Position numbers and translations under genes: made by a program. DNA of 64,000 nucleotides from a virus (lineage: Duplodnaviria > Caudoviricetes): the IMG/VR virus record IMGVR_UViG_3300025392_000232, positions 31,129-95,128 of that record. The stretch is one strand, 5' to 3'. Within the stretch, counting starts at the first letter, position 1. Each line of letters begins with the position of its first letter. Below, piece after piece: positions 4,968 to 63,887 of this stretch. The notes below the pieces were generated by a model that searched no databases, was not told where the DNA came from, and saw only the letters and a program-made list of their open reading frames with translations.

Positions 4968-5192
4968 TTAGTTGACTTTAACTAATTTGTCAAGGTTTTT
5001 ATTGTCCATTAATTTCTTCAAAGCCGCATTTCTTCGATTGGACAATTCTTCTTTGTAGCTGTCTAGTAACCCTGCAATCTGATCTCTTACTAGAAAATTA
5101 CTAGTCATAAAGTATTTTTTGGATAAGTCGCCGATTTTTAGTTCAAGCTCGGCGTCCTTGATTTGACTCAAATCACCTGCTAGCGGATGCAT
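4968..5192 (-). CDS. Hypothetical protein
   Basis: Operon-coupled ORF. Confidence 0.7.
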   Translation of the reverse strand: MHPLAGDLSQIKDAELELKIGDLSKKYFMTSNFLVRDQIAGLLDSYKEELSNRRNAALKKLMDNKNLDKLVKVN

Positions 5193-32129: not shown

Positions 32130-32158
32130 ATTATACTGCCAATTGGTTATCATGTCAA
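32130..32158 (-). promoter_or_regulatory. Consensus sigma70 early promoter
   Basis: TTGACA-17-TATAAT. Confidence 0.9.
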
Positions 32159-36640: not shown

Positions 36641-36641
36641 A

Positions 36642-37475
36642 TTATGTCCATAGGCTTTGTCGAATTTTGATTAAACGAATCATCATTTCTTCTTCTTCTT
36701 TTTCATAAGCCTCTTCCATTTCACGAAGTGCTTTGTGTGCGGCTTCGCTTTTGGCCTTAAGCTCAGGGGTATCTTTGCCGCCACTCCAGCTTAGTTTGCC
36801 ACCGTTAGCCGCACGACTTTCTTCACAGTAGGTAGTCCAGCCACTGGCTTCATATGGGTCAGGACGATTACGATAGACAGTAGTCCACCAAGTATAAAGT
36901 TCGATAATCTCTTTAGCGGCCGTAGCTTGATAAGTTGGTTCTGCTAGATGCTTCTCGCCTTCGTCTAGGAATTCTGCATTAGTTAGTGTACTAGCCCAGT
37001 TCAGATACGCCATACCAGCTTCTGGACTGCGCCAAGTACGCCAACGCAACCAACCACTGCGATACCAAGGAACATCAAACTTTTTACGTTCCTCGTCATT
37101 CCACATTACATAGTGCCACGCTTGTTCGATTTCAACGAAGTTGACAAGTTCGTTAAAAAGACAAGGGAGAAACCTATTACCAACGTCACTCCAACTGCCA
37201 GGGCGGATATCACGAGTATCGGCAGTAAGAGCGTGACTCTTACTAACCCAACGATTATTGATGTAGTATCTGACGTCATTTAGTCGATCCGGTATGTAGT
37301 AAACAATTTTTTGTAGAATGTCTAATCCTTCTTCAGCTATCCAGTAACGGATAGGATGTGCGGCACCAGCAGTCTTATACCACTCGTCCCATTCTTCGCT
37401 AGTACCTGCACCTAGTTTAGGTGTGCCACGAAGCCAGTCTGCAAATTTTGAGCAAGTCCAATAATGTGATCTCAT
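36642..37475 (-). CDS. Trp-rich phage hypothetical protein
   Basis: Long ORF, operon-coupled. Confidence 0.8.
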   Translation of the reverse strand: MRSHYWTCSKFADWLRGTPKLGAGTSEEWDEWYKTAGAAHPIRYWIAEEGLDILQKIVYYIPDRLNDVRYYINNRWVSKSHALTADTRDIRPGSWSDVGNRFLPCLFNELVNFVEIEQAWHYVMWNDEERKKFDVPWYRSGWLRWRTWRSPEAGMAYLNWASTLTNAEFLDEGEKHLAEPTYQATAAKEIIELYTWWTTVYRNRPDPYEASGWTTYCEESRAANGGKLSWSGGKDTPELKAKSEAAHKALREMEEAYEKEEEEMMIRLIKIRQSLWT

Positions 37476-38998
37476 ATTACTACCTTATTTTTAATCCATT
37501 CGTCTACTGTAGGATACATTATAACATTTTTTTGATAGAATTCAACAGTCTTTTGGTGTAATTGTTTGCCTTCTTCCAAAAAAAGATAGTTAGTTTTTTT
37601 AAGATTAGCTGTATCAAACATGTTTAAACCTTGAATTACAGTAACCCATGCCGCACTACTGTATCCATGTGTCCGGGGTTGAGCAGTATTTTCTAAATAA
37701 TATAACTTCCAACCTTCTAGTTTTTCAGATAATGAATCTGGAATTCTAAATTGATCATAGCAGTGGCTCTTCCAAAATTCTGTATCATTCCTGTGTCCTC
37801 GATAATGAAGACACAAGTAGTCCCTGATATCAATAATAACATTCCAAATTTTGTCATTCATGATATCGAAATCTTCTTGTGTAGTATTGTGTGGATTCCA
37901 ATTACTATACAGACTTTGCAATGTATCTACAATTACTGCAATACCGTTGGCTTCTAACGGCTCCATGAATCCTGTACTTAGTCCTACACCAACAACATTT
38001 TTAACAATAAAGTTTTTCATCATACCAGGTTTGATGTTTAACTTTGCAATAGGTTCAATATGATTACCAAATGTATTGTGTATTTCTTCAAGTGCTTGAT
38101 CTTCGGTGAGATGTTCTGGATCATACAAATAACCGTTGCCGCTACGATGACAAAGATTAATATTCCAACTCCAACCATATTTCATAGCACGGGCATTAGT
38201 AGTAACTTGATATTTAGGTTCGTCCCACCAAGCAATCACACTTCGTGCAGGAAAATAATTACCAAAGTCTACTATTGGTTCTTTTAATACTTTACCTAAC
38301 AGTAAACTAGCAAATCCGCTACAATCAAAAAACCAATCTGCTGTATGAGACGATCCGTCTTTTAAAAAGATAGAGTTTATATTACCAGATTCGTCTTGAC
38401 CAGAATGTATGTATTCTCCCAGTATTAATTTTATACCTTTTGATAGACCTAGCTCTTTTAAGTACGCGGCATTTTCTCTACTTTCATAGTGCCACATACA
38501 TCCAATATCCAATGGACTAGTTGCATCCAATGGCACTCTGTTCTGTTTAATAAATTCTCCAGCATAAAATGCATCGGATAATGGAATGTCGTTAGCTATT
38601 AGTGTCTTAAAATATAATTCCTTACTTTGTAGTCCACTAGACCTATTCAATAAGTCTAGTATACTCATACTAGATAAATCAGAAAAATTTGATTCTATGC
38701 CATCTGGGATTAACTCGGTTTGTAGTGCATGGATGAATTCTGTTCCGACACCATTCCAATTGGTAAACTTTCCTCCTAGCTTGGGAGTAGCATTTACTTT
38801 TATCAACCAGTCGGCCACACTTATATCCAAGTATGCAAATAATTTTAATAGTGTTGATGTTCCACTTTCACCGGCTATAATTGGAGGGCGGTTTGGATCT
38901 TCAATTAATTCAATAGAAATATCTTTATAAGTCTTTTGTAAGAATAATGCCGTAAGCCATCCGGCAGTCCCGCCGCCAAGTACGACAATTTTTTTCAT
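37472..38998 (-). CDS. Flavin-dependent tryptophan halogenase-family protein
   Basis: GGGTAGW, GES, ATPKLG, DCSGF, WSWNI, GFMEPLEA. Confidence 0.88.
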   Translation of the reverse strand: MKKIVVLGGGTAGWLTALFLQKTYKDISIELIEDPNRPPIIAGESGTSTLLKLFAYLDISVADWLIKVNATPKLGGKFTNWNGVGTEFIHALQTELIPDGIESNFSDLSSMSILDLLNRSSGLQSKELYFKTLIANDIPLSDAFYAGEFIKQNRVPLDATSPLDIGCMWHYESRENAAYLKELGLSKGIKLILGEYIHSGQDESGNINSIFLKDGSSHTADWFFDCSGFASLLLGKVLKEPIVDFGNYFPARSVIAWWDEPKYQVTTNARAMKYGWSWNINLCHRSGNGYLYDPEHLTEDQALEEIHNTFGNHIEPIAKLNIKPGMMKNFIVKNVVGVGLSTGFMEPLEANGIAVIVDTLQSLYSNWNPHNTTQEDFDIMNDKIWNVIIDIRDYLCLHYRGHRNDTEFWKSHCYDQFRIPDSLSEKLEGWKLYYLENTAQPRTHGYSSAAWVTVIQGLNMFDTANLKKTNYLFLEEGKQLHQKTVEFYQKNVIMYPTVDEWIKNKVVI

Positions 38999-50505: not shown

Positions 50506-50589
50506 AATGTATTATACTTTAATCTATTTATTCAGTCAACCATACTAGAAAATTATTTCGATGTATCCAACCATACTATAAATAGTTCC

Positions 50590-51327
50590 ATGCTAAGTGT
50601 TCCAAAACAATATCTATATTTGGTTGTTGATCAAACTAATAAGTGTGTAATAACAACCACTAATAGCATTAGTACTGCTAATGCTGTTTCTAACGGAATT
50701 CTAAATAGCTCTCCTATGGTTGTTTGGTTTCCATATTTTGATACAAAACATGATATCATACAAGCCAACAAAAATGAAAATATAAACTATAAATTAGTTA
50801 GACAAATTGGTAAACATATTGACAAGGGTGGTGTTACAATCTCCGATACACACATGTTTGAACCTGTTGAAAAGACACCTTCAGGCAAGATGTTTGATTT
50901 AGTTGAAATGGATAAAGATTTGATCACCGATGAATGGATTGTACGCAGGCGGCTGGGAAATTTTAGAGCCAGTTTAATGATGGAGCTCGAAATGTATTGC
51001 GAAAGATATCTTTCAAGAGCTGTAGAATTTTGTGGCGACGAGCTATTATTTCCGTATCTTCAAAAACAAATAGAATTGTCTAATCCAACACTAGGTATCT
51101 ATGCACCGGGTATACAGGAATGGGCATTAATTAATGAAATCTCTGTTGCTAATGCATATCAAGAATTAAAATTAAAATACGACTCTGCGTGTATCACTGC
51201 AATGCGTATACATTCTTTTTGGAATAAATTTGTTAATAAGTTTAATACTATCACATTAGATGATAATCAAACTCGTAGCGAAATATTTAAAAGAATGGAA
51301 GCATATTTTATATTTGGTGATATATGA
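50590..51327 (+). CDS. Hypothetical protein, partner of the downstream PP-loop enzyme
   Basis: TATAAATA at 50577-50584, 5 nt before the ATG. Confidence 0.75.
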   Translation: MLSVPKQYLYLVVDQTNKCVITTTNSISTANAVSNGILNSSPMVVWFPYFDTKHDIIQANKNENINYKLVRQIGKHIDKGGVTISDTHMFEPVEKTPSGKMFDLVEMDKDLITDEWIVRRRLGNFRASLMMELEMYCERYLSRAVEFCGDELLFPYLQKQIELSNPTLGIYAPGIQEWALINEISVANAYQELKLKYDSACITAMRIHSFWNKFVNKFNTITLDDNQTRSEIFKRMEAYFIFGDI

Positions 51328-52418
51328 ATCAACTATGCATAAGCACAATATACGAATTAAGGGATAGATTTACTTTATTTAAAGACTACCCAGATATTAA
51401 ATTTTTTGAAGAAATAACAAATAAAACTTCAGGTATATGGATGGTTGATCGCACAAGTACCATACAACTTCCATTTAGGACCAAATTACTTGAAAAACAT
51501 AGACTTCCAGATTTAACCGATATTGAAAGTCTATCATTAGAACAATGTTGTATGAATCGTTCTAGGGATTTACTAACTGGAGATTTAACACTTTATTTTT
51601 TGTATAGCGGTGGCATCGATTCTACACTTGCATTATCTTCATTTATTAAAGCAGGCGCACCCCGCGATAAACTAATAGTAGTTTGTAATGCTGATAGTAT
51701 AAGAGAAAATCCTAATTTCTATCATATATACATAAAACCAAATTTTAATTTGATGTCGTCTGAATTATTCATGCAGACTATAAAAACACAAGAGCTAGAC
51801 GGACAAGTTATACTATGCGAGCCTGGAGATGCATTATATGGTCAACACCTTATGTCGATTGCATTTTCAATGTTTGGCGGCGATTATCTTGAAAAACCAG
51901 CTACTAGACAAACTCTAGTAGATTTTTTCAAAGCAAGGGGTCTAGATAATCTAACAGCCAATTGTTGTTTTGATATGTATGCATCTGAAATGTCTCCTCG
52001 ACCGATAGAGACACTATATGATTTTTTCTGGTGGACGCATTTTAATTGGCGTTGGCAATATAATTGTGAAAAACTAAGCCTCCGGACTTTGCTAAATCCT
52101 AAAATAGAACCATTTTATTCTACTCCAGAATTCCAAAAATGGGCAGTAACACATGATCAGCCTAGGATTAGTACACCTGGCGACTTCAAAAAAGATTATA
52201 AACAATTAATATATGATTTTACAAAAGATCGAGAGTATTTTAATTTAAAAATTAAACATACATCATCGAGCTATTTTTATTTAAACGGAGCCTGCGTAGC
52301 AGTAGACGCCGATGGTACTAGATTGAAGTCAAAAGATTTTTCTTTAATGGACTATTATCAACCAGACAATTTTATCTCTAATTGGATCAAAGATAATTGT
52401 CGTCGCTATACGGTATAG
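51324..52418 (+). CDS. PP-loop (asparagine synthetase-like) ATP pyrophosphatase
   Basis: LYSGGIDST, CEPGDALYG, DFFWW. Confidence 0.75.
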   Translation: MNQLCISTIYELRDRFTLFKDYPDIKFFEEITNKTSGIWMVDRTSTIQLPFRTKLLEKHRLPDLTDIESLSLEQCCMNRSRDLLTGDLTLYFLYSGGIDSTLALSSFIKAGAPRDKLIVVCNADSIRENPNFYHIYIKPNFNLMSSELFMQTIKTQELDGQVILCEPGDALYGQHLMSIAFSMFGGDYLEKPATRQTLVDFFKARGLDNLTANCCFDMYASEMSPRPIETLYDFFWWTHFNWRWQYNCEKLSLRTLLNPKIEPFYSTPEFQKWAVTHDQPRISTPGDFKKDYKQLIYDFTKDREYFNLKIKHTSSSYFYLNGACVAVDADGTRLKSKDFSLMDYYQPDNFISNWIKDNCRRYTV

Positions 52419-52797
52419 GAAACCATCCTAGCTTGTCGAGATCCTCGAGTATTTCATCTGTTACTACACCTTCGGACGCATACTTAGTTCGTTCAAAATA
52501 CTCGTCATCATCTTTACCGTCAAAGCTCAGCCCTCCACGCATACCACTACAGTAATAGTCCATGTAGTCTTCTCCCTGGTTACGAAGGTCAGCTACGATT
52601 CCACCGGCGCCACGCCAACTAGCAGTCCAATATTCTTCTTTGAGTATGGGCCATACATTTTTAGAATCACGTTTACACCATTGCATGTTACACCAAGCCG
52701 CATACAAGTTCTGTGCATAGGCTTTATCCTCGGCACGAATCTTGGCCATTATTTCGGGGCTATTTCGAATGTCTTCAACTAAATCTTGTCTTTTCAT
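52387..52797 (-). CDS. Phage hypothetical protein
   Basis: YAQNLYAAWCN...SWRGAGGIVADLR...DYMDYYCSG. Confidence 0.8.
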   Translation of the reverse strand: MKRQDLVEDIRNSPEIMAKIRAEDKAYAQNLYAAWCNMQWCKRDSKNVWPILKEEYWTASWRGAGGIVADLRNQGEDYMDYYCSGMRGGLSFDGKDDDEYFERTKYASEGVVTDEILEDLDKLGWFPIPYSDDNYL

Positions 52798-53126
52798 TTA
52801 TGCCACGGGCCTTGGAAACAGTGTCGCATTTCGTGGCCTACTGCCCACATGGTCGTGTTTCGTGCTGTAATAACTGTACAAGTTGGTTGACCTTGCGGAC
52901 CTTTGTCCCAAAAGCTACAGGCTTCAACAGTATAACCAAATCCGCCAAACTTACGTTTACGACTTTCTGCTTCACATCGAGCTTGTACATTGTCTACTGG
53001 GAACCATGAGACAGCAACTTCAGTTGTATAGTTTTGATTTGTACTGAATAGTACGTTTGGATCATCACGTTCTACAGCGAATGCAGAACTGCTTAATAAT
53101 GCTATTACTAACAATGCCTTTTTCAT
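52794..53126 (-). CDS. Secreted small protein with HExxH
   Basis: Signal peptide ending AFA; GHEMRHC. Confidence 0.7.
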   Translation of the reverse strand: MKKALLVIALLSSSAFAVERDDPNVLFSTNQNYTTEVAVSWFPVDNVQARCEAESRKRKFGGFGYTVEACSFWDKGPQGQPTCTVITARNTTMWAVGHEMRHCFQGPWHK

Positions 53127-53150
53127 ACTAGCCTTTCTGTGTGCCTAAAT

Positions 53151-53246
53151 TGGTGTGGGCGGTAGGATTCGAACCTACAAAGGCAGTCTAAGACCAAGCC
53201 CCGTACCCGGCAAGCCGGAGGTCTACCATATTCCACTCACGTCCAC
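53151..53246 (-). tRNA. Non-canonical tRNA-like RNA (Leu-type body, no regular anticodon arm)
   Basis: Acceptor GTGGACG/CGCCCAC-A-CCA, D loop GGAATATGGTAGAC, T arm GTAGG-TTCGAAT-CCTAC; 96 nt. Confidence 0.75.
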
Positions 53247-53252
53247 ATTATA

Positions 53253-53281
53253 ATTATATGTGAATTATTAATAAATGTCAA
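53253..53281 (-). promoter_or_regulatory. Consensus sigma70 promoter for the tRNA-like RNA
   Basis: TTGACA-17-TATAAT; G1 lies 7 nt downstream of the -10 box. Confidence 0.9.
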
Positions 53282-53700
53282 CCAGGATAATCGGCGTTTT
53301 TCAAAGTTGGATGAAAATAAAAAATTGGATTTGTATACTGCGGATCGACTCTGCTATCATAATAGGGAATTTCTTGCCCAAGATGTTGGGTTTTGATAGC
53401 TAAATGATGATTATGCTCGATCAAATATGCCATACGTAGCTCTCTCCATGCTGGATGTAAAGTTCTACGTTTTAGTACAAACTCTTGATAGTCAGGATCA
53501 CTCTTATATAAGTTTCGAATAACTAGCGTTAATCCGTCTTCGGAGTAAGTTTTTTCTCTTTCAACAACCAAGCTATCTTCATGAATTTCTTTGTAGGTTT
53601 CTTGAATCTCTGGCAATTCGGTAAAAAATTCAGCCGATGTGTTTGGACGTGTAAAAGTTGACACGCTCATTAGCTCTTCGCCTTCTGGGAATTCTTTCAT
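53278..53700 (-). CDS. Hypothetical protein
   Basis: AAGGAG SD and TAAATA upstream. Confidence 0.75.
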   Translation of the reverse strand: MKEFPEGEELMSVSTFTRPNTSAEFFTELPEIQETYKEIHEDSLVVEREKTYSEDGLTLVIRNLYKSDPDYQEFVLKRRTLHPAWRELRMAYLIEHNHHLAIKTQHLGQEIPYYDSRVDPQYTNPIFYFHPTLKNADYPG

Positions 53701-53727
53701 AATATCTCCTTAATAACTATCCTGTAT

Positions 53728-54216
53728 TTATTCCTTTACTACACCTACTAAATGTAATCTTGCTTCCGAACTACAATTCATAAAAGTATGGTGTTGACGA
53801 GTATCTACCCAAAACACATGATCTTGTTTTAGATGAGATACCATACCTCTTTGAAACACAAAAAAACACTGATCGTTTGTAATAATGGGGATATGTATCC
53901 TGGGACTAATATCTCGATGCATACTATAGCAGGTCTTTGGTCCGACCCATAAAAATCTAGTTCGGGTTAGATTATATTTCTTAATAATTGTTTCAAATAC
54001 AGAACCTTGAAAAAACATGTTTAAGTTAGTATATTCTAAATCTCGACCTTTACTAGTTCCTACTGCGCTAGACCACGGGTCTTCTTGTTCTAAATATTGT
54101 AGTCCAGCTTGTCTATTATTAGATCCAAACTCTGTCCATTGAATTTTTTCTTCTATAGATTTATATGTTTCTGTTAAACTAGCAGAATTGCATGTGTCTA
54201 TAATTTTAATTAACAT
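53728..54216 (-). CDS. 2OG-Fe(II) oxygenase, Asp/Asn beta-hydroxylase-like (probable start MLIKII)
   Basis: HRD...RIHIPI...HTFMN...RLHLV. Confidence 0.8.
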   Translation of the reverse strand: MLIKIIDTCNSASLTETYKSIEEKIQWTEFGSNNRQAGLQYLEQEDPWSSAVGTSKGRDLEYTNLNMFFQGSVFETIIKKYNLTRTRFLWVGPKTCYSMHRDISPRIHIPIITNDQCFFVFQRGMVSHLKQDHVFWVDTRQHHTFMNCSSEARLHLVGVVKE

Positions 54217-54217
54217 A

Positions 54218-55477
54218 TCAAATAGCCATGTCTTGTTCAATTCTACTCAAATCTACATTTCCAAAATCTAATATTAAATCTGAAGAAACAGAATTATTTG
54301 GTAAGAATTTATTAACTGGCCCTAGGGAATAAAATTTCTTCCAAATTTTAAAACCTAGCAACCCTTTATACTTGTGTATATTAAGATATTTTTTATCTAT
54401 CGAGCCTATCAAATTATCCAAATCACTTTGCATCATTTGTGCGGCATGAGTTCCTGAATGTAGATTATAGAACCATGCATCATGCCGACCTAAAAACATT
54501 CTATCCGGCTTTTGTGCTTGGAAAGATAATTTCTTGATTGCAGGGTATATTGCAGGTACAATCCCACGTTCGTATACTCCGCCGTTGACTTCTTTAAATA
54601 CATGCCCAATAGGATTGAATGCCGATTTGTTTCCTTTTTCATCATTAAATCGCATGGCACTATACGCCTCACTGCCAGCCGGTGTCATTAAGAATTTAGC
54701 AGTTTCGTGTGCTTGTTTAACTATTAGCTGTGGTAGCTGTGGACTGTGATAAAAGAATACAGCAAATGTGTTAGGATGGTTAACTGAATTATATTTGTTG
54801 CTATACACAGTATCGTAAAATGAAATTAAAAAATTATTCTTATATCTAACAACCGCAGGTTTATCGATACCTTGTACAATGGCAATCTTTTTTCCAGATT
54901 CTGCAATATGTTTTAGATAGGTATAACGGTCTAAGTTATAACGCCCAGCCATAGTAGGATGTAACCAATCGTTACATTTTAACAACCACATATCAGGTTC
55001 GTAATTTAACATATCTTCAAAATAGTCATGCAACGTTACTTTAATTTTTGGATAGTTATCCTTAATCTTTTGCATGAATGGCAACTGTGTGTGAAATGTT
55101 TCGTCGATAGTATTTGTTACATCTTGATTAGTTGGATCTGACTTCCAGTCTCTAAGACCACTAAGCGGAGCACTTGCTACAACTTCGTCTACATGCAAAC
55201 CATTATTAACAAATGCATAAAACATGTTGGTGCTGTCTGCACCTCCGCTAAGGAACATTAATACATAGTCGTATTCATCTCTAATCTGCCTAGCACGTTC
55301 AGCATATAGTTCATCTAAAGTCTGTGTAGGTTCAGTTTTCCAATCAGTAGCTTGAAATACAGCATCATTAAAATTCCAGACTGGATCAACATTTAATTGC
55401 TGTGCTCTAAATAGAGCAGGAATTTTTTCATAAAACTTTTCAGTGCCGACAGTATAAAATCCTAAATCATCAATCAT
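54218..55477 (-). CDS. PP-loop (adenine nucleotide alpha-hydrolase) enzyme
   Basis: LSGGADSTN, GIDKP. Confidence 0.7.
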   Translation of the reverse strand: MIDDLGFYTVGTEKFYEKIPALFRAQQLNVDPVWNFNDAVFQATDWKTEPTQTLDELYAERARQIRDEYDYVLMFLSGGADSTNMFYAFVNNGLHVDEVVASAPLSGLRDWKSDPTNQDVTNTIDETFHTQLPFMQKIKDNYPKIKVTLHDYFEDMLNYEPDMWLLKCNDWLHPTMAGRYNLDRYTYLKHIAESGKKIAIVQGIDKPAVVRYKNNFLISFYDTVYSNKYNSVNHPNTFAVFFYHSPQLPQLIVKQAHETAKFLMTPAGSEAYSAMRFNDEKGNKSAFNPIGHVFKEVNGGVYERGIVPAIYPAIKKLSFQAQKPDRMFLGRHDAWFYNLHSGTHAAQMMQSDLDNLIGSIDKKYLNIHKYKGLLGFKIWKKFYSLGPVNKFLPNNSVSSDLILDFGNVDLSRIEQDMAI

Positions 55478-56757
55478 TTTAATATTCCTATATCTCTTCT
55501 GTATCTAAATTGGCCTATATGTTGCTTATCAAGATATGCATAAAGTTTTTTACTAGCCGCTTCGTGTGTATTATCAGTCGCTGTAAAAATTGAATGTTTG
55601 ATATACGGAGGATCAAACCCTTCCAAACCCATAATAATATCTTCCGGAACAGGCTCTAACTTGGGTAAGAAACTAGCAGGCTTAGTCCAATCAAATACTC
55701 TGTTAGCTAATTTAATAGTTACTGTCTTTTTATTATTATGTACAATTTTAGGAATTTTATTTCCACAACTTGCGGCATAAAATAGCTCGCCTAAATCGTT
55801 TGTAATTGATCCTAATATAGCTGGGAGTTCCGGATCTCCGCTACGTGTATTAATTTCAAGTATAATTGGAGTGTCCGTTTCATCGACTGCTATACCTAAA
55901 AACATAAAACCTTTATAATGACAGTTTTTAATTTTTAAATAATTATAAATTTTATCTGCATACTCATGCACCCGGGGATCGATATCATTAACATTATATG
56001 CACCCATACTACAACTATTAAATCCTAAGTCATTATCTAAAGACTTTTTGTAATCTCTTGCAGATCCAAAGTATTCCCAGCCCGAATCATTTACTAACAT
56101 GTGATAAGAATATTCTCTTTTAATATTAACAACTTCTTCGAGTACAATACTTGCATTAAGATCAATATTAGTAATCTTAGGTTCGTCTCTAAGATGTGTA
56201 CTAAACAAATCGTTAAAAACTTCTTCGTAATTTAAATTATCTACGACTGTAGTTTGCCTACCACTTTGAAATAGATAATTTAATTTAACCACAAATGGAC
56301 GAGGAATAGTTTTAAAATTTTCGTAAAGATATTGTCCGGACACTAACTTACCTTTTCCTGTAGGTATTCCTAATTCATTAAGTATTTGCTTGGTAATGAA
56401 CTTGTCTTTTTCTAAAATAGTATTATCTGGAGTTACAAAGAAGTAAGGAATATTGGCCAATCGAAATGCATCGTGTGCATATTGTGTGGACGGCCAAGGC
56501 AAACTTGCTGCCACAACAAAACTTATATCTTTATCTTTTATGAACTCAATTAGCTGATCTACATTTATCTTTGGTATTTCGGATATAATTGTAGGGTTTC
56601 CGCTACTGCCGTCAACATTTCGAGATATAGGAATATAATTTTCAGTACGCTTAATTGACTTATGTGCGCCTACATGATAAACTTTATGTCCTTGTTGAAC
56701 AAATAGTTGAGCCCAGTGATGATAACATCCGGTTGGTGATAACACTAATATATTCAT
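55474..56757 (-). CDS. ATP-grasp ligase, diverged PurD (GARS)-like
   Basis: LEKDKFITKQIL..LGIPT, EYS, RDYKK...SMGAY, LEINTRSGDPE. Confidence 0.8.
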   Translation of the reverse strand: MNILVLSPTGCYHHWAQLFVQQGHKVYHVGAHKSIKRTENYIPISRNVDGSSGNPTIISEIPKINVDQLIEFIKDKDISFVVAASLPWPSTQYAHDAFRLANIPYFFVTPDNTILEKDKFITKQILNELGIPTGKGKLVSGQYLYENFKTIPRPFVVKLNYLFQSGRQTTVVDNLNYEEVFNDLFSTHLRDEPKITNIDLNASIVLEEVVNIKREYSYHMLVNDSGWEYFGSARDYKKSLDNDLGFNSCSMGAYNVNDIDPRVHEYADKIYNYLKIKNCHYKGFMFLGIAVDETDTPIILEINTRSGDPELPAILGSITNDLGELFYAASCGNKIPKIVHNNKKTVTIKLANRVFDWTKPASFLPKLEPVPEDIIMGLEGFDPPYIKHSIFTATDNTHEAASKKLYAYLDKQHIGQFRYRRDIGILK

Positions 56758-57549
56758 TTATTTCTTTCTAAGCAAACATATAATCCAATATGTAGGATCT
56801 AGTTCCCACCAGCGTCGTCCACCATAATTTGGATTCTTTGCATCACCATGATGATTGTTATGCCAACATTCACCCTGTGTAATTAAAAACAACCAAGGAA
56901 TATTTGCACTAGTATCTTTTGTATTGTAATTTTTATAACCTAACTTTTCATAGTGTACCACACTTGTTTGTAAACAAAATACATGAAGTGTAATAAATGC
57001 CGGAAGTGCTAGCAGATAAAAGAAGGCATCTACGCTAATTAATGCAGTTACACCGTATACGGCCCACAGTAGGTAACTATAGTATTTGTGTACAAACACA
57101 TGGTCTGGATCTCGTAATAAGTCTGGAATACTACGTACTGGAACATCACCCTCTTTCATTTTAAACATCCACAAGATGTAACTATGCCAAAAACCATCTT
57201 CTGGGCTGTGCGGGTCTTTATCAGTATCGCTAAATCTGTGGTGCAGGCCGCGATGTATACCGACCCACAATATACTACTACCTTGTCCAGCAATCGCACC
57301 GCAAAATAATATAAATCTTTTCATAAATTTGCTTACGGGAAATCCATGGTGACTAAACAGTCTGTGATAACCGGCGCCAACTCCTACAAATTTCATAAAG
57401 ATCCAACCGACTATTGTAGCCATCCACCACCAGCTAGGTGCGTTACCAATACAAATATTATAAATTGCCCATACTCCAAAAATATTTAGAGGAATAATTC
57501 CGCCCCATAAGTGTTTTATAGTCAGCGTATTCTTTAACATTTGATTCAT
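56758..57549 (-). CDS. Membrane fatty-acid desaturase (delta-9 type; probable start MNQML)
   Basis: His boxes HRLFSH, HRGLHH, HNNHH; DPHSP. Confidence 0.9.
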   Translation of the reverse strand: MNQMLKNTLTIKHLWGGIIPLNIFGVWAIYNICIGNAPSWWWMATIVGWIFMKFVGVGAGYHRLFSHHGFPVSKFMKRFILFCGAIAGQGSSILWVGIHRGLHHRFSDTDKDPHSPEDGFWHSYILWMFKMKEGDVPVRSIPDLLRDPDHVFVHKYYSYLLWAVYGVTALISVDAFFYLLALPAFITLHVFCLQTSVVHYEKLGYKNYNTKDTSANIPWLFLITQGECWHNNHHGDAKNPNYGGRRWWELDPTYWIICLLRKK

Positions 57550-58088
57550 TTTCGTTTCCATGTGTTTAATAGGGTAATATCGCCACTGTAAATAATAGTT
57601 TGCCAACAGGTATTGTCGCATTCATTTGGGCATGTAAGGTATTTATAGTTGTCTGTTTCGAAGATCAAATTAAATTGTTTTTCAAAATTTTCAATCACCC
57701 ATTTATCCCAATTATTTGTTTGTCTGCTAATAAAGTATAGTTTACAGCTGGTATGTTCTGCCAACCAGTTAATTTGGCTCTTTGCACTACAACCCATGCA
57801 GTCACTTATTTTCTTTAAAAATGACTTTTTGTTATTAGGTTTCCACGCACGGTTCAATATACGATACGCTTCACTCGGCCAGCAATCTCTGTTACTAATA
57901 CTAGAACAAAGTTCTGGAACATCATCATCGTCAAAATGAATAGTTAGTGCAACTGCAAATTGAAAAGACTCTCGATCGTAGTTCTTCCACAGTCGATGAC
58001 TACGGTCGTTATACTGTACTTCTCTCAATTGATCAAACAATGCATCGTATTCAGAGTTAGTGCCTGGAGCCCATGTTATAGTACGCAT
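57546..58088 (-). CDS. Hypothetical protein, possibly GNAT-like
   Basis: Operon-coupled ORF; the fold call is a weak impression only. Confidence 0.5.
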   Translation of the reverse strand: MRTITWAPGTNSEYDALFDQLREVQYNDRSHRLWKNYDRESFQFAVALTIHFDDDDVPELCSSISNRDCWPSEAYRILNRAWKPNNKKSFLKKISDCMGCSAKSQINWLAEHTSCKLYFISRQTNNWDKWVIENFEKQFNLIFETDNYKYLTCPNECDNTCWQTIIYSGDITLLNTWKRK

Positions 58089-58963
58089 TAAGATTCCATC
58101 CGTTTCAACATTTCAAAGAATGGCTCGCGATGTACTCCCCACCAGTCTTTTTCAAATTGATTAAAAATTTGTAAATTTTTATGCTGATAGATTGGACTTT
58201 TTTCTATATTCTCGTATCCAGTGAATTTGGGTCGTTCGGCCATATTGAACGGAGCAAGGCTGTTTAATATTTTCCACTTGGTACTATTACTGCCCAGTTT
58301 ACCTGGAATTTTGTTATTTGCTAGGTCAGCCATTAGCGGACTTTGCATATAGGACAGATATTGTTCAGCAGTATATGTTAAGAAGAACGGGCATCCATAT
58401 AAGTTATTTTTTCTAAAATAATCTAAGCAAGGCCAAATAGGCTCGTATTCGTCAACGTACCATATGCCTGTAGCTTCATCCTTAGCTATGTGCGGTACAC
58501 TATGACTACCCATAATAATAGTGCCGTCCACTTTGCCCAATGCATACAGTGTTGATGGAATCTGGTAAGTGGCTAGTTTATATTCTTGACCAATGTCAGA
58601 TATTAGACCTGACTTAACAAAATCATCAAAGTCAATATCTATAATAATAGGTGAAAGATTTTTACTTTTGCAAAAGTCAAACGCATATTTTACATCGTGA
58701 TCGTTGTAGCCAGGGTTTAATTTAATAATAACAGGCACAACATCTATGCCCATTGATAAAAATACATTTAATACAAACTCGCTATCTACACCGCCGCTAT
58801 ACATTAAGTGTAATTTGCCACGCTTGTTGTTGTAAACATACTCGGCAACTTTCAAACACTCTTGCAAGTAGTTGGGCTTTTTATTTGTAGGTGCATCGAT
58901 AGCTACATGGAAAGTATCTCCACTTCCGCTTGGGCGCATATAGTTGTCTTTAAGTAATTCCAT
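58088..58963 (-). CDS. PP-loop enzyme
   Basis: MYSGGVDSE; C-terminal RPKFTGYE. Confidence 0.7.
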   Translation of the reverse strand: MELLKDNYMRPSGSGDTFHVAIDAPTNKKPNYLQECLKVAEYVYNNKRGKLHLMYSGGVDSEFVLNVFLSMGIDVVPVIIKLNPGYNDHDVKYAFDFCKSKNLSPIIIDIDFDDFVKSGLISDIGQEYKLATYQIPSTLYALGKVDGTIIMGSHSVPHIAKDEATGIWYVDEYEPIWPCLDYFRKNNLYGCPFFLTYTAEQYLSYMQSPLMADLANNKIPGKLGSNSTKWKILNSLAPFNMAERPKFTGYENIEKSPIYQHKNLQIFNQFEKDWWGVHREPFFEMLKRMES

Positions 58964-58964
58964 G

Positions 58965-60245
58965 TTACCAATCTATAGTGTATGCTGACATCTTTTCAGC
59001 AATAAAGTCTTTAACCTTTTGGTCAGTCATGTACAACACGTTGTACTCGTGGTCCAACCCAAATCTGAAGTTAGGTTGTTTGGCTATTTCAATATTTGAT
59101 AGATCTTGAAATAGCATAACAGATGCACCTAGCGATCCTATCTTTAGTTTAAAGTAATAGTACCAATCGTTTTTATCTAGATTGTAGATATATTTGCGTG
59201 AAGCCATTTTATAAGTAGATGCACCTATAGTTTGTATCTTCTCGCCATTGTTATTGTTAGTCATACTCCAGTGTTGATAGTCCGAGGAGTTGAACCAATT
59301 AATAGCCCAGTCATTAACTACTGTCTTTACATCGATCCTATCATTAAGATAAATGGCACAACGCATAGCGCAGTTAACATATTTTAGATTAAAAATTTGC
59401 CACCAGAAGAAATCGTGTAATGTGTATACAGGAGTTAGACTAGTTTCAATGTTCTTAACAATTTTTTGATACCATAGTTCTGCAAAGTTAGGATTGGTAT
59501 CTATATGGAAGTTGTGTATGCCACCACGCTTAACTTGATTTATCTCAAAGTGCTTTAGTATAATGTCTTTGAACTTAGAGTAGTGTGCTGTATTAAAGTC
59601 TTTCTTTAAGTTTTGTAAATTTACTCTTGAACTTTCTGACATCATACTACAGTAGTGATCGTAGTGTTGATACAAGTCTAATGCAAATAACATGCCAAAC
59701 AAACAATCGCCTTCGTCTGCTGTAATAGGGCGATAGCCTGCTTCGATTAAATCATCGTACTTGCTAACAGTAGAGTTAATAATTTTAAACTTGCCCCAAA
59801 TAAACTTACTCCAAAATGTAGGATTCTCTACAATGCTTTGCGAGTTAGCACAGACTACTACATTCTTTAGTTCTTCTACAGTTAGATTCTTAATCAATGC
59901 GCTAAGAGCTAATGTACTGTCAATGCCTCCACTATACATAATAGCAAACTTTTGATTCTTCTCGTTGATTAATTGTTTAATTTCTCTAGCACGATTGTCA
60001 GTTACTTCGGCAAAGGACTTTGAAAATGTAGCATCATATGTTGGCAACTTATACACGTCGGGAATCTCTTGCGCCCACGGTAAACTCCATTCGCCATCGC
60101 GAGCAACAAATCTGTTAGGATTATACTTACGAGCTAGATCGACCATAAACTGTCCGCCCGTGCTAGACTGTGCTCTGATATCAGTCCAGAAGTCTCGTTG
60201 TTGAGGGTTCAATACAACGTTACTAAACAACAGTGGTTCGTTCAT
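58965..60245 (-). CDS. PP-loop (asparagine synthetase-like) enzyme, paralog of 51324-52418
   Basis: MYSGGIDSTLALS, SIVENPTF, ADEGDCLFG, DFFWW. Confidence 0.75.
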   Translation of the reverse strand: MNEPLLFSNVVLNPQQRDFWTDIRAQSSTGGQFMVDLARKYNPNRFVARDGEWSLPWAQEIPDVYKLPTYDATFSKSFAEVTDNRAREIKQLINEKNQKFAIMYSGGIDSTLALSALIKNLTVEELKNVVVCANSQSIVENPTFWSKFIWGKFKIINSTVSKYDDLIEAGYRPITADEGDCLFGMLFALDLYQHYDHYCSMMSESSRVNLQNLKKDFNTAHYSKFKDIILKHFEINQVKRGGIHNFHIDTNPNFAELWYQKIVKNIETSLTPVYTLHDFFWWQIFNLKYVNCAMRCAIYLNDRIDVKTVVNDWAINWFNSSDYQHWSMTNNNNGEKIQTIGASTYKMASRKYIYNLDKNDWYYYFKLKIGSLGASVMLFQDLSNIEIAKQPNFRFGLDHEYNVLYMTDQKVKDFIAEKMSAYTIDW

Positions 60246-60246
60246 A

Positions 60247-60981
60247 TTAACACGCCCAGAATGTATAGTTGTCTTTGACCGTTGAGGTTAGGGCGGGTTG
60301 TGCAATTCCTGCGGCAGAATAAAACAAATCTCTAAAGTTAGCATTGTCGTTTAATGAATACACTGCCCATGCATGATGGATTTGTTCAGTTGCTTCGGTT
60401 AATGTATTTGCGTGATACAGAATATTTTTAATCTCATTCATCATGCCCTTGGGTGCAGTAGTTGTGTCGTACTGTATTCTAAACTCAGTAGGACTTGTAT
60501 CAGCAAAAAAAGCATCTAAGTACTTTGCATCCGGCCACAAGTTTCTATAGGACTCGGCGATTGTAATTGCATGAACACATTGTAATACAAATAGGGAATA
60601 TTCTTGTAAGTTTTTGAGCGCCTGTTTTCTATCTTCTTGTTCGTATTCTGTACTCCATCCCTTTTCGATAATTTCGTTAGATTTTAAAAATGACATCGAT
60701 GCACTTTGTTTAATACTAGTCAATGAACTAGCACCGTACAACATTTCATTTCGTTTATGCTGTGTTCCGAAACACAAACAATTATCGTTAGTCAATTGAT
60801 CCGCTTTTAAAATGTAAGTTACGGTTAGCACTTTAGATGATAGCAATTTTCCAGCTTCAAGTAACAACCACGGATCTAAATTGTCTACTAGAAGAAATCG
60901 ATCAAACACCGGCGAAAACAACGCATATCTGTTTGGAGCATTTTTATTTGCAGGATAGTATTCGGCCCAAGGTCTGTTCAT
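60247..60981 (-). CDS. Hypothetical protein, first gene of a late operon
   Basis: TAAATA at 60987-60992, 5 nt before the ATG. Confidence 0.75.
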   Translation of the reverse strand: MNRPWAEYYPANKNAPNRYALFSPVFDRFLLVDNLDPWLLLEAGKLLSSKVLTVTYILKADQLTNDNCLCFGTQHKRNEMLYGASSLTSIKQSASMSFLKSNEIIEKGWSTEYEQEDRKQALKNLQEYSLFVLQCVHAITIAESYRNLWPDAKYLDAFFADTSPTEFRIQYDTTTAPKGMMNEIKNILYHANTLTEATEQIHHAWAVYSLNDNANFRDLFYSAAGIAQPALTSTVKDNYTFWAC

Positions 60982-61011
60982 GCTAATATTTAACTATAAA
61001 GAAAACGAGCC

Positions 61012-61040
61012 AAAAAAAAAGGACCCAAAGGTCCTTTTTT
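61012..61040 (-). terminator. Intrinsic terminator
   Basis: A9-GGACC-caaa-GGTCC-T6. Confidence 0.85.
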
Positions 61041-61053
61041 AATCAATCAATTA

Positions 61054-61998
61054 TTATTTTGATTGGATTTTTGATACTAAGCCTGGAGTAAAGTAATTTT
61101 CAAACTTTTGATAAACTACTTTAGTTGCTTCTGCAAATCGAGCTTTTTCTTCTGCACTCATACGAACAACTTCGATTCCATCTGCTTCTGCACGAACTTG
61201 TGTCTTAACAATATCATCGATACTGATTGAACGCTCATAACGTGCGGCTACCTTAGCTGACTCACTGACAATTTCTTGTAGCTCTGGGCTCAATGTATTC
61301 CAGAAGTCAGTACCAACTAGAATACTTGTTAAGAACAAGCTGTGTTCTGTATGGTTGATAACTTTAGAAACTTTATCATGTCCAAGTGCATATACACGTG
61401 GGTATGTGCTTTCGCCAACTGCAACATTAGCTGAAGCCAAGTTGTCTGATAATTCTTCTAGTTCCAATGGAACTACATCAGCACCTAGTGTCTTGAATGT
61501 TTCGATAGCAACTGGGCTATGACTTGTACGTAGTTTAACACCGCGTAGGTCTTCAATCTTAGCAACTGTTTCGTTACCAGGAATAATACGGAACCCACCT
61601 GAGTATGTGAAAGCTAAACCTTTAACTTTCTTTGACTCTTGCAAACTGTCTAACAAGCTAGCACCAACTTCGCCTTCAAATACACGAGTTGCGTGATCGT
61701 GATCTTTGAATAGGAATGGTAGATCCAACGCAAAGAAATCTTTGTTGATCTTACCTAATGTGATTGTATAAGTCTGGCTCATTTCGATTGCACCAGAATC
61801 TAGCAAATCTACTAAGCTGTGCTTGTCAACTACAACACCGTTGTTATACTTTTCAGCATATTCGCTCATAGTCATAACTTCGATTTCTAATGCTTCAGGA
61901 GCTCTTGTGTTTACTTCTTCGGCAAATACTTTAGCGGCACGAATGAACAACTCGATTGGTTCGTGTGCTAATACCCATTTTACATGTTTTTTATTCAT
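61054..61998 (-). CDS. TRAP transporter solute-binding protein (DctP family) lacking a signal peptide
   Basis: ALDLPFLFKD, GFRII, EDLRGVKLR, FKTLGA, WNTLSPELQ; GGAG SD before MNKKH. Confidence 0.85.
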   Translation of the reverse strand: MNKKHVKWVLAHEPIELFIRAAKVFAEEVNTRAPEALEIEVMTMSEYAEKYNNGVVVDKHSLVDLLDSGAIEMSQTYTITLGKINKDFFALDLPFLFKDHDHATRVFEGEVGASLLDSLQESKKVKGLAFTYSGGFRIIPGNETVAKIEDLRGVKLRTSHSPVAIETFKTLGADVVPLELEELSDNLASANVAVGESTYPRVYALGHDKVSKVINHTEHSLFLTSILVGTDFWNTLSPELQEIVSESAKVAARYERSISIDDIVKTQVRAEADGIEVVRMSAEEKARFAEATKVVYQKFENYFTPGLVSKIQSK

Positions 61999-62053
61999 TT
62001 TGGAATCTCCAATATTTAACGTTAAATTTCGGCAGGTCATGACTCCTGTCCGT

Positions 62054-62308
62054 TTATTTAGTCGTTTCTTCTGAGTTATCTGCTAGTTTTTTACCCCAAT
62101 CACTACGATTCCATGCTCGTTCGTGAAAGAAATACAGTGTACTATTAACTACAGTTGTGAAACTAGCAAGTCCTAACCCAAATGCTACACTACCTGTAGT
62201 AAAATAACCAATAGCAAAATACTGACCCATGATAATAATACGCCAAGAAACAACCTTAGCTAGCGATCTTGGAATACGTTCTTGAAATTTAGCTTTTAAA
62301 TCAAACAT
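62054..62308 (-). CDS. DUF2061-like small membrane protein
   Basis: RSLAKVVSWR...LYFFHERAWN..WG. Confidence 0.8.
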   Translation of the reverse strand: MFDLKAKFQERIPRSLAKVVSWRIIIMGQYFAIGYFTTGSVAFGLGLASFTTVVNSTLYFFHERAWNRSDWGKKLADNSEETTK

Positions 62309-62311
62309 AGT

Positions 62312-63226
62312 TTACCTTATATATTTTTCGTAGTCTTTAAATGCCGCATCGATATCGGCAGGCAATGTGTTGTATTGGATATTTATAGAGCCTGCGCCTT
62401 GCTCTAAGAATTTCAGGAATTCGAAGTAGGGAATTCCAATTAGTTTTTGTAAGAACTTAGGGTTAGTACACAAGTAGTCTACATTCTCTGAACCCGCAAA
62501 TTTTGGAAAGTAAGATAGACTGGTGCCCCAGTACTTGGCAAACATAATAGGTTTGATATAATAATCCCAGCGGTCGACTGTCTTTAACCACTTCTTGCCA
62601 TCTACTTTAAGACCATTCTTATCAAAGTAAACATGCGACACAATACTTGCTTTATAAATGTCGTCACCTATCATACTATAGAGATATTCGCTTGTAGCGG
62701 TAAAACTTATTTCTCCGCCGGGCCTGTTAAGACTTTTCCATGCTCGAAGTCTAGCATTAGTTGGAGTATAGTATCCGTCTATAAAATAAGGCTCTTTACC
62801 TTCTCGGCAGTATATAAAATGATCATGTAAATGTTGTACAAACAATTTGTCTGCTGGTAACATACTTAGAAATTTTGTGTGTAAGGCCGCTACACAATGT
62901 ACATCTAAGGTTTCAGCAAGTTGTTCAATTTCTGCTCTTGACGCGATAGGATCTATTTCAACAACTTGGAACTTTTTATTGTATATTTCTTCTAAGAGCT
63001 TTAACTGTTCAAATTCGTTATCGTTATATCCAGGTAAGTGCATAAATGCACCCTCTACATCCAAGCCTTGATTTAAAAATGCCATCAGCATAGTTTGACT
63101 ATCTAAACCAGAACTCATTCCTAGCAAGATTTTGCCCGGATTCATATTGTATATTTCTTTAGCCCTACGCATTGTCTCATCATAAATGGACAACACAGGA
63201 CGAGAGCAGGTAGTGTATGTAAACAT
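62312..63226 (-). CDS. PP-loop enzyme, related to 58088-58963
   Basis: MSSGLDSQ; PKFAGSE. Confidence 0.65.
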   Translation of the reverse strand: MFTYTTCSRPVLSIYDETMRRAKEIYNMNPGKILLGMSSGLDSQTMLMAFLNQGLDVEGAFMHLPGYNDNEFEQLKLLEEIYNKKFQVVEIDPIASRAEIEQLAETLDVHCVAALHTKFLSMLPADKLFVQHLHDHFIYCREGKEPYFIDGYYTPTNARLRAWKSLNRPGGEISFTATSEYLYSMIGDDIYKASIVSHVYFDKNGLKVDGKKWLKTVDRWDYYIKPIMFAKYWGTSLSYFPKFAGSENVDYLCTNPKFLQKLIGIPYFEFLKFLEQGAGSINIQYNTLPADIDAAFKDYEKYIR

Positions 63227-63255
63227 GAACTATTTAACACTAAAAAAATACTACC

Positions 63256-63283
63256 AAAAAAAAAGGACCCGAAGGTCCTTTTT
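63256..63283 (-). terminator. Intrinsic terminator, near-identical to 61012-61040
   Basis: A9-GGACC-cgaa-GGTCC-T5. Confidence 0.85.
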
Positions 63284-63887
63284 ACATTGTAGGTCCGTTG
63301 CCGTTCCTAAATCCTACACTACCACCTTCTGCTTCGATGTTCTTGATGACATCTTCAAACAGTATGGGTGCAAAGTCCGGTGTTTGTTCTACGCAAACGC
63401 AATGATAACGAACATCGTTTTCATCGCTGTATAAAATTTCACCAGTTCTAGCATCGACACCACGAGCCTTTTTAACACGGTTTGCGTGTAAGTGTCCGTG
63501 AATGTTAACACCAAAACGACCCATTGAATCTGAGTGTAACGGAATATGGCTAAGGATCATACCGTTCATAACGTGATAAGCTCTAAGCTCTCTAAAGTAC
63601 ATACGATACTCGTCGTCTCTAAAGATGTCGTGGTTACCACGAATTAAAACCTTGTCGCCGTTTAATCTCGACATGATACTTAACGCTTTACGATTAATGA
63701 CAACATCGCCCAGATGATAGACCTTGTCAGTGGGCTTTACCCGTTCGTTCCACGCCTTAACCATTGCTTCGTCCATTTCCTCAGGTGAGTCCCAAGGACG
63801 AAGTTTTGTAACACCATCGTTACGTGTAAAGCGACACACGCCAGTATGTCCAAAATGCGTGTCGCTCACTAAGAATACACTTGGCAT
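63282..63887 (-). CDS. Calcineurin-like metallophosphoesterase
   Basis: SDTHFGH, HLGD, GNHD, SHIP, HGHLH. Confidence 0.92.
   Translation of the reverse strand: MPSVFLVSDTHFGHTGVCRFTRNDGVTKLRPWDSPEEMDEAMVKAWNERVKPTDKVYHLGDVVINRKALSIMSRLNGDKVLIRGNHDIFRDDEYRMYFRELRAYHVMNGMILSHIPLHSDSMGRFGVNIHGHLHANRVKKARGVDARTGEILYSDENDVRYHCVCVEQTPDFAPILFEDVIKNIEAEGGSVGFRNGNGPTM

Follow-up and report, generated by a model that had tools for sequence, protein, structure and literature searches.

Introduction

Amide bonds can be assembled independently of nonribosomal peptide synthetases (NRPS), as in dapdiamide-type pathways, which combine the ATP-grasp enzymes DdaG and DdaF, the AsnB-like amidotransferase DdaH and the Fe/2-oxoglutarate (Fe/2OG) oxygenase DdaC. 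The tailoring of ornithine lipids, other aminolipids and lipid A involves the GNAT OlsB, the PF05118 enzymes OlsC and LpxO, and OlsE of the desaturase/hydroxylase superfamily. In this study we analyzed a gene region at positions 50577-63236 of a 64-kb stretch of viral DNA, in which an ATP-grasp ligase, AsnB-like enzymes, a putative Fe/2OG oxygenase and a membrane desaturase-like protein are encoded close together. The stretch, hereafter the window, comprises bases 31129-95128 of the 95-kb IMG/VR viral contig IMGVR_UViG_3300025392_000232. CheckV assigns the contig a completeness of 26%, which indicates a fragment of a jumbo phage. Genes are designated by the letters given in Table 1.

An earlier note on the window had proposed a late-expressed biosynthetic cluster, either building an acyl-amide or peptidic small molecule or decorating or cross-linking virion proteins. 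The observation itself was confirmed, while the interpretation placed on it is partly supported. The best reading of the region is a mosaic island of small modules and not one fixed pathway. Tentatively, with a probability of roughly 0.45, we propose that it encodes a phage-specific pathway of modular build, which forms amide bonds on a carboxylate metabolite or on a lipid that bears an amino acid. Protein folds, conserved residues, the adjacency of genes within modules and a phage-only distribution were observed; the order of steps, the substrate, the product and the timing suggested below are inferred.

Results and discussion

AsnB-like PP-loop proteins

The motif S[GS]GxDS occurs in exactly five open reading frames (ORFs) of at least 100 amino acids (aa) in the window, all of them inside the region. 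The earlier note had listed the same five proteins, B, G, K, L and P, and the motif was found nowhere else in the 64 kb. None of the five received a Pfam, NCBIfam or PHROG assignment above cut-off, and the profile PF00733 matched neither G nor L at E 0.01. Sequence and profile searches of the PDB with G and L yielded nothing meaningful, a profile of 32 G homologs retrieved no PDB AsnB sequence, and Foldseek with G returned generic PP-loop matches only, with E above 1e-3.

AlphaFold (AF2) models of G and L were built from alignments of metagenomic homologs, with predicted local distance difference test (pLDDT) values of 87 and 91, respectively. In an exhaustive structural comparison (VIA), G matched E. 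coli AsnB (1ct9; Z 10.5 over 282 aa, root-mean-square deviation 4.8), human ASNS (9b6c; Z 10.1) and beta-lactam synthetase (1jgt; Z 9.5). The matches of L were TsnB9 (7ylz; Z 13.7 over 278 aa), human ASNS (9b6c; Z 11.4), beta-lactam synthetase (1jgt; Z 11.3) and the carbapenam synthetase CarA (Z 9.8). The best fold matches of both proteins are thus all carboxylate-adenylating amide formers, namely AsnB, ASNS, beta-lactam synthetase, carbapenam synthetase and TsnB9. QueC, TilS and the tRNA thiolases ranked below the AsnB types (QueC 3bl5, Z 5.5 for G and 4.3 for L). On the basis of these models, G and L are assigned the fold of the AsnB synthetase domain. The AsnB-like character, which the earlier note attributed to L, therefore holds, though not for L as a sole case: G adopts the same predicted fold, and B is a paralog of L that falls into the same sequence cluster (26.5% identity over 324 aa, E 9e-21).

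As had been noted, an N-terminal nucleophile (Ntn) glutaminase domain is missing. No Pfam GATase match was obtained, and the models of G and L align only to the synthetase half of the known structures. None of the five PP-loop proteins begins with Met-Cys, so that the catalytic Cys2 is absent (G starts with MIDD and L with MNEP), and none contains the CxxC or CxxCxxC of the QueC zinc motif.

The PP-loop superfamily also includes QueC, TilS, MnmA, ThiI and NcsA, and weaker fold matches of this kind were obtained (Z 5.5-8.6). Together with a conserved tRNA-Leu-like RNA inside the region, they would suit a modification of phage DNA bases or of tRNA-like RNA in the manner of QueC or TilS. We regard such a role as highly improbable. 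The top fold matches are of the AsnB type and not of the TilS/QueC type, the five proteins lack the zinc motif, and their isoelectric points are acidic to neutral (5.8-6.5). Neither TGT/DpdA nor QueC was detected in the 95-kb contig. Isoelectric points, fold and the missing TGT and QueC together speak against nucleic acids as targets; in addition, the late-type heads of the transcription units would be unusual for DNA-modification genes. A 7-deazaguanine pathway was rejected on the absence of TGT from the contig and of any PF06508 (QueC) match at E 0.1.

The PurD-like ATP-grasp ligase H

H scored 103 bits against the purD equivalog (TIGR00877), far under the cut-off of 288 bits, and is hence not PurD. 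Roles of PurD residues in binding ATP/Mg and glycine have been described, whereas the site for phosphoribosylamine (PRA) is not defined for PurD itself (PMC8880213). When H was aligned to Aquifex PurD (2YW2), the ATP/Mg residues E100, K103, K143, E185, E192 and K214 and the glycine residues D212, R287 and E292 were conserved, and the segments ARDYKK and EINTRSGDPE, which fall on the glycine positions, are invariant in 34 family members. The altered substrate loops that the earlier note had pointed out are real: DYKK stands for DHKR, and throughout the family G[FY]N[ST]x[SG]xG takes the place of GPNTGGMG of PurD (112 homologs). The N-terminal domain of the family is poorly conserved. Retained ATP/Mg and glycine residues, in combination with the altered loop and the weakly conserved N domain, suggest a glycine-type activation with a different amine. 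H thus probably activates glycine or a similar amino acid and hands it to an amine other than that used by PurD. The earlier note had named ordinary QueC, PurD or tRNA-modification orthologs as the outcome that would undo its view; the enzymes of the region are none of these.

A protein target would be an alternative: amidation, isopeptide bonds or cross-links, glycine addition or Asp/Asn hydroxylation could be introduced by the enzymes into host proteins or into proteins of the virion (tail fibres, capsid). Carboxylates of peptides or proteins are the substrates of AsnB-like lasso cyclases and of the QueC-like Cap9. Asp/Asn residues of proteins are hydroxylated by the archetypal member of PF05118, the family to which gene F belongs, and among ATP-grasp enzymes RimK, for example, lengthens proteins at their C-termini. 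Cap9 (9nto) is among the fold matches of G (Z 6.5), the operon heads resemble late promoters, and structural and tail-fibre-like genes are encoded in the same window. In H, however, the residues that bind glycine by its free amino group are kept, which fits a free amino acid, and protein modification offers no obvious role for a membrane desaturase and a carboxylate-binding protein. No precursor peptide, RRE (RiPP recognition element) protein or protease families were found among the neighbours by Pfam, a search in which small ORFs were not covered systematically. Given a site for a free amino acid in H and a membrane desaturase in the operon, a small molecule or lipid is a better-fitting target than a protein, and modification of proteins appears quite improbable to us.

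Distribution and linkage across phages

The ligase families are almost confined to uncultured phages. A scan for the G family found relatives on 418 IMG/VR contigs, compared with four contigs, all from metagenome-assembled genomes (MAGs), in 185,579 species genomes. Tblastn searches of 50,697 GenBank phages returned nothing for G and L and only true purD, at about 25% identity, for H. A DNA-level search of GenBank phages with the operon gave no match, and PHROGs contained no match for the PP-loop or ATP-grasp genes. For L, 373 homologs were collected, all unnamed; homologs of H and G are likewise numerous in metagenomes and unnamed. Neighbours of G in the ESM Atlas belong to viral clusters only.

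Linkage was assessed by comparing 85 related loci, 81 of them by gene-order string, with 72 remaining after manual de-duplication. H lies beside G in 15 of the 16 non-redundant loci with H; either gene may come first, and two H-G pairs are present at one locus. M adjoins an L/B-type gene in all five loci with M, and J adjoins K in all four loci with J. K is also found beside the family c46 (7/7 loci with c46) and beside a Rieske oxygenase (9/12 loci with a Rieske gene). G stands next to TctC in 27 of the 43 loci with TctC, and TctC next to DctP in 21 of the 33 loci with DctP. Beyond direct adjacency, loci with H more often carry a desaturase (11/14 versus 15/58 without H, p 4e-4), an L/B gene (7/14 versus 5/58, p 1e-3) and K (9/14 versus 17/58). 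PP-loop genes usually occur in several copies per island, with a maximum of seven in 21 kb. The five related PP-loop genes within 13 kb of the present region, the larger number elsewhere and the enrichments around H point to a shared chemical theme. Phage-near-exclusive enzyme families that move together as small modules probably serve to make or alter a small molecule or lipid with an amide linkage.

Proposed chemistry

Taken by class, the enzymes suggest amide-bond formation on carboxylates at the expense of ATP, with one acyl-phosphate ligase, up to five adenylating enzymes, oxidative tailoring and a carboxylate binder of the cytoplasm. In the pathway that we favour, H and G would form the core module. 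H would activate glycine, or a similar small amino acid, as acyl phosphate and join it to an amine other than phosphoribosylamine, and G would adenylate a carboxylate and pass it to ammonia or an amine; the two enzymes probably act successively on one molecule. L with M, B with A, K with J, and P may carry out further adenylation-dependent amidations. The desaturase I and the hydroxylase F could tailor an acyl chain or an Asp/Asn-like part of the product, and N, a DctP-type protein without signal peptide, might hold a carboxylate substrate or product in the cytoplasm. The likeliest class of substrate would be a small carboxylate metabolite or an amino-acid-bearing lipid that is made or edited late in infection.

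A more specific version appears unlikely to us. It holds that jumbo aquatic phages possess an assembly line of their own, independent of ribosome and NRPS, in which virus-exclusive AsnB-like ligases, a glycine-activating PurD-like ligase and a cytoplasmic binding protein yield an acyl-amide that contains glycine, for example an aminolipid or an amphiphilic, chelator-like compound, and this product alters the host cell or its envelope at a late stage of infection. Should the modules indeed make or edit a small molecule or lipid, phages would own a whole class of amide-forming enzymes, present in hundreds of uncultured aquatic phage genomes and distinct from the borrowed host metabolism that is usual in phages, and several large families of 'hypothetical' proteins would gain a function. 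Enzymology would gain ATP-grasp and AsnB-type ligases of a new kind, and the chemistry of the variable islands in myophages of marine and fresh waters would become open to testing. The pair of H and G offers a compact entry point for testing.

Several observations weigh against an amide-forming pathway encoded by this region. Neither a substrate or product nor a carrier protein or scaffold-forming enzyme could be identified in it. The complete operon order was found only in locus L007, a close relative. The earlier note had expected the genes to co-occur in other genomes; this applies to small modules, which recur, and not to the eight-gene operon, which is not fixed. Since modules reshuffle freely and the full operon is restricted to L007, tightly packed phage genes do not have to encode a single pathway. 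The enrichment statistics, calculated on the 72 loci, ignore kinship among the phages. The glycine specificity of H is deduced from just three aligned residues, and the late timing of the region from the promoter-like motif as its sole basis. Finally, members of the desaturase, hydroxylase and binding-protein families are also encoded singly by marine phages, as auxiliary genes that stand alone (PMC5776448, PMC7029224).

These points lead to an explanation without a common pathway: independent auxiliary modules (H-G, M-L, K-J, desaturase, hydroxylase, binding protein) may share a hypervariable island through tight packing and serve separate, unrelated targets. In distant phages the two-gene modules are kept and recombined with radical SAM, Rieske, GNAT and TctC genes, and related islands also contain AhpC/CMD and nitroreductase genes, so that conservation is limited to the two-gene modules and the remainder is reshuffled. 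The term 'host recognition clusters' has been applied to such variable islands (PMC7029224), and phage desaturases that stand alone are on record (PMC5776448). A comparable island of a cultured phage lies beside tail fibres and carries no PP-loop or ATP-grasp genes. The enrichment of desaturase, L/B and K at H loci and the concentration of five related PP-loop genes in a single part of the window, however, argue against a purely independent assortment, and we consider it somewhat unlikely.

The cultured phage is the pelagimyophage Mosig EXVC030M of Pelagibacter (MT647606 50756-69337; locus L211). Its tail-fibre-adjacent island encodes an FA_desaturase, two Asp_Arg_Hydrox proteins, a GNAT, TauD, a peroxiredoxin, a nitroreductase, MoaA-like radical SAM proteins, a carbamoyltransferase and an aminotransferase. 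For the part of such islands that excludes the ligases, Mosig could provide an experimental model.

Gene layout and transcription signals

The features of the region are compiled in Table 1. They are arranged in three transcription units: A-B on the plus strand, and M to F (E) and P-O-N on the minus strand.

Table 1 Features of the region and of its surroundings in the window (aa, amino acids; nt, nucleotides)
Feature	Position	Strand	Assignment	Basis or remark
Giant ORF	12251-25963	-	4570-aa ORF, probably giant virion or fibre protein	next to 1464-aa ORF
Second enzyme block	32150-38998	-	several enzyme genes	between structural genes and DNA ligase
Motif TATAAATA	50577..50589	+	late-promoter-like motif	5 nt before ATG of gene A
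A	50590..51327	+	245 aa	4-nt overlap with B
B	51324..52418	+	PP-loop protein (SGGIDS), L paralog	sequence identity, common cluster with L
C	52387-52797	-	acidic 136-aa protein	downstream of tRNA-like RNA
D	52794-53126	-	110-aa small secreted protein, signal peptide, HEMRH metallopeptidase-like motif	downstream of tRNA-like RNA
tRNA-Leu-like RNA	53246-53151	-	96 nt, encoded ACCA end	12/12 sigma-70 promoter TTGACA-N17-TATAAT at 53281-53253
E	53278..53700	-	140 aa	family of ~100-aa small proteins (local phmmer/hmmsearch)
F	53728..54240	-	Asp/Asn beta-hydroxylase-family (AspH/LpxO/OlsC type) Fe/2OG oxygenase	PF05118 27.5 bits (cut-off 22.6); likely start ATG 54216
G	54218..55477	-	AsnB-synthetase-like PP-loop ATPase without glutaminase domain	fold of AF2 model; SGGADS at residue 77
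H	55474..56757	-	PurD-like ATP-grasp ligase	GARS_A 57 bits; ATP and glycine residues kept; family-specific loop
I	56758..57549	-	delta-9-type membrane desaturase-like di-iron protein	PF00487 54 bits (cut-off 29.7); longest ORF from 57621
J	57546..58088	-	180 aa, Cys- and Trp-rich	adjoins K
K	58088..58963	-	small PP-loop ATPase (SGGVDS)	P homolog, distant G relative
L	58965..60245	-	AsnB-synthetase-like PP-loop ATPase without glutaminase domain	fold of AF2 model; SGGIDS at residue 105
M	60247..60981	-	244 aa	terminator hairpin, then TAAATA-N5-ATG at head; adjoins L/B-type gene
N	61054..62040	-	DctP-family binding protein	PF03480 168 bits; likely start Met15, base 61998
O	62054..62308	-	DUF2061 small membrane protein	PF09834 58 bits
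P	62312..63226	-	small PP-loop ATPase (SSGLDS)	K homolog; terminator hairpin, then TAAATA-N4-ATG at head
Q	63282-63887	-	metallophosphoesterase	

The minus-strand operon runs M, L (PP-loop), K (PP-loop), J, I (FA_desaturase), H (GARS_A), G (PP-loop) and F (Asp_Arg_Hydrox). M/L and L/K are separated by a 1-nt gap each, K/J overlap by 1 nt, I/H have no gap and H/G overlap by 4 nt. The gene order and the gaps of 1 nt or overlaps given in the earlier note for 60981-53728 were reproduced, provided that I begins at Met25 (base 57549), which creates an ATGA overlap of J/I, and F at ATG 54216, which leaves a 1-nt gap between G and F.

The units open with TATAAATAGTTCC-ATG (50590), TAAATATTAGC-ATG (60981) and TAAATAGTTC-ATG (63226), with TAAATA located 4-5 nt ahead of the ATG, as had been reported, and no Shine-Dalgarno sequence was found at these three heads. 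The heads of the M and P units are each preceded by a near-identical GC hairpin with a T-run, of the terminator type (63283-63260 for P). In the entire window, TAAATA-N3-7-ATG opens an ORF of at least 50 aa at five sites, three of which are the unit heads. ATAAATA is also present ahead of the tail-fibre-like genes at 5192, 11744 and 29445, and neighbouring genes have TTGACA-N17-TATAAT promoters. Judged by sequence, the TAAATA heads plausibly belong to the T4-type late promoter class. If TAAATA functions as the -10 element, its distance from the ATG implies leaderless or nearly leaderless late transcripts. Of the late expression proposed in the earlier note, the promoter-like motif, shared with tail-fibre-like genes, is thus the part that stands.

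In contrast to its late-type neighbours, the metallophosphoesterase gene Q is preceded by a sigma-70 promoter of consensus sequence and by a strong Shine-Dalgarno sequence. Its product shows 75-90% identity across otherwise divergent phages.

Putative tailoring, binding and membrane proteins

The presence of a desaturase, a hydroxylase and a solute-binding protein, as stated previously, was confirmed by matches of I, F and N above the Pfam cut-offs (PF00487, PF05118 and PF03480). I displays the His boxes HRLFSHH, HRGLHHRFSD and HNNHH and three hydrophobic segments. It scored 56 bits against the DesA equivalog (cut-off 400) and is 29% identical to the FA_desaturase of Pelagibacter phage Mosig. 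The homolog of F in L007 has 161 aa. When N was aligned to 4p47, its GGFR fell on GFR, and the carboxylate-binding Arg is kept. A signal peptide was found neither in N nor in any of 30 phage homologs, whereas it is present in every phage homolog of TctC. N has no DctQ/M gene as neighbour. Across phages, N is 84-91% identical where neighbouring enzymes reach 50-78%.

Small PP-loop proteins and partner genes

K and P are homologous to each other (hhalign 99.3%), and both are distant relatives of G (96.4% for K); K also gave weak matches to LarE and NadE. Of the partner proteins, A had no Pfam, PHROG or NCBIfam match, and a homolog was present only in L007 among the fetched loci. For M, 164 representative relatives were found, every one of them standalone. 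The two are not paralogs, as hhalign detected no similarity between them. M was also considered as a lipoxygenase because of an ESM Atlas feature score of 0.91, which stems from 138 shared features only. This candidate was discarded: four family members gave no Pfam match at E 10, and the family alignment contains zero conserved histidines. J has no family match; a weak profile match links it to c57, another K-associated family (hhalign 51%).

The family of E recurs in these islands, with up to four copies per locus (L040), and shares the motifs T-RP-x-t-x-v-x-F and SEDGLTL. A homolog of E is located directly upstream of H-G in L013, a distant phage. The idea that E is a carrier protein ending in glycine was rejected, because the C-terminus is not conserved across the family.

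The tRNA-Leu-like RNA and genes C and D

The RNA combines a tRNA-Leu-like D arm, a long variable arm and a canonical T arm with a CUUG-tetraloop hairpin in place of the anticodon arm. It was not called by ARAGORN and stayed under the gathering threshold of the Rfam tRNA model. Seven compensatory (covarying) pairs were observed. Copies were detected in nine loci of the first set, the window included, and on at least 78 further IMG/VR phage contigs. The arm at the anticodon position ranges from a tetraloop to a long stem ending CUCAUAG, and three more distant copies have a 7-nt loop with CAU. In L007, L009, L011 and L012 the RNA is likewise followed by D and then by C.

A link of the RNA to the ligases was examined and rejected. 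All nine RNA loci of the first set had H, yet among 80 loci selected for the RNA, H/G occurred once, and C was near the RNA in 44 and D in 22. This composition, which also argues against the modification of nucleic acids discussed above, identifies C and D as the neighbours of the RNA and places it as a separate unit outside the ligase module. The first association with H is read as shared ancestry or shared island location. The RNA might be charged by leucyl-tRNA synthetase (LeuRS) or act as a processing signal for the D-C transcript.

Genomic setting

The window has a GC content of 34-41%. Upstream of the region it encodes tail-fibre-like and virion proteins, the 4570-aa ORF, radical SAM, tryptophan halogenase and sugar epimerase proteins and a DNA ligase. 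The giant ORF is situated beside a 1464-aa ORF and tail-fibre-like genes. The second enzyme block contains a radical-SAM-like gene, a nucleotide-sugar epimerase, a tryptophan-halogenase-like flavoenzyme and unassigned ORFs. The closest cultured phages share about 35% identity in single proteins only: SPO1-like Bacillus phages in the ligase and PA5oct-like jumbo phages in another gene.

Comparison with known systems

Among described enzymes, the PP-loop proteins most resemble those members of the AsnB superfamily that operate without glutaminase chemistry or separately from it, namely beta-lactam synthetase, carbapenam synthetase, the hydroxyamidotransferase TsnB9, the lasso cyclases and DdaH. 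They have in common SGGxDS and a C-terminal synthetase fold of about 230-280 residues; the predicted structures imply adenylation of a carboxylate followed by attack of a nitrogen nucleophile. In contrast to these enzymes, the phage proteins have no Ntn glutaminase domain and no PF00733 match, are 7-14% identical to the known structures, and belong to phage-restricted families that usually occur in several copies per island.

H shares with PurD (TIGR00877) the ATP-grasp architecture including the C domain, the ATP/Mg and glycine residues, EINxRxGDPE and the C-terminal YRxDIG. It differs in its low score against the equivalog, the changed loop, DYKK for DHKR and the poorly conserved N domain. 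Its setting is also different, as a purine-gene context is absent and an AsnB-like gene is the neighbour at nearly all loci.

The dapdiamide cluster likewise unites an ATP-grasp ligase, an AsnB-like enzyme and an Fe/2OG oxygenase in one small cluster. The relation in sequence is at the superfamily level only, and in the phage these classes are joined by further PP-loop paralogs, a membrane desaturase and a binding protein of the cytoplasm. With ornithine-lipid and lipid A tailoring the region shares the families PF05118 and PF00487, and GNATs recur in related islands. The window, however, encodes no OlsA/OlsB-type acyltransferase, and the amide-forming enzymes of the phage are of other classes.

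The host recognition cluster of pelagimyophages and cyanomyophages (PMC7029224), exemplified by Mosig, is similar in its variable block of oxygenase, desaturase, Asp_Arg_Hydrox, GNAT, radical SAM and peroxiredoxin genes, often near tail-fibre genes. It differs in that the cultured example has no PP-loop or ATP-grasp ligases, whereas the present phage is a jumbo phage that carries both. The region belongs with the tailoring islands of aquatic myophages, which are poorly understood, and is built around uncharacterised ligase families that are restricted to phages.

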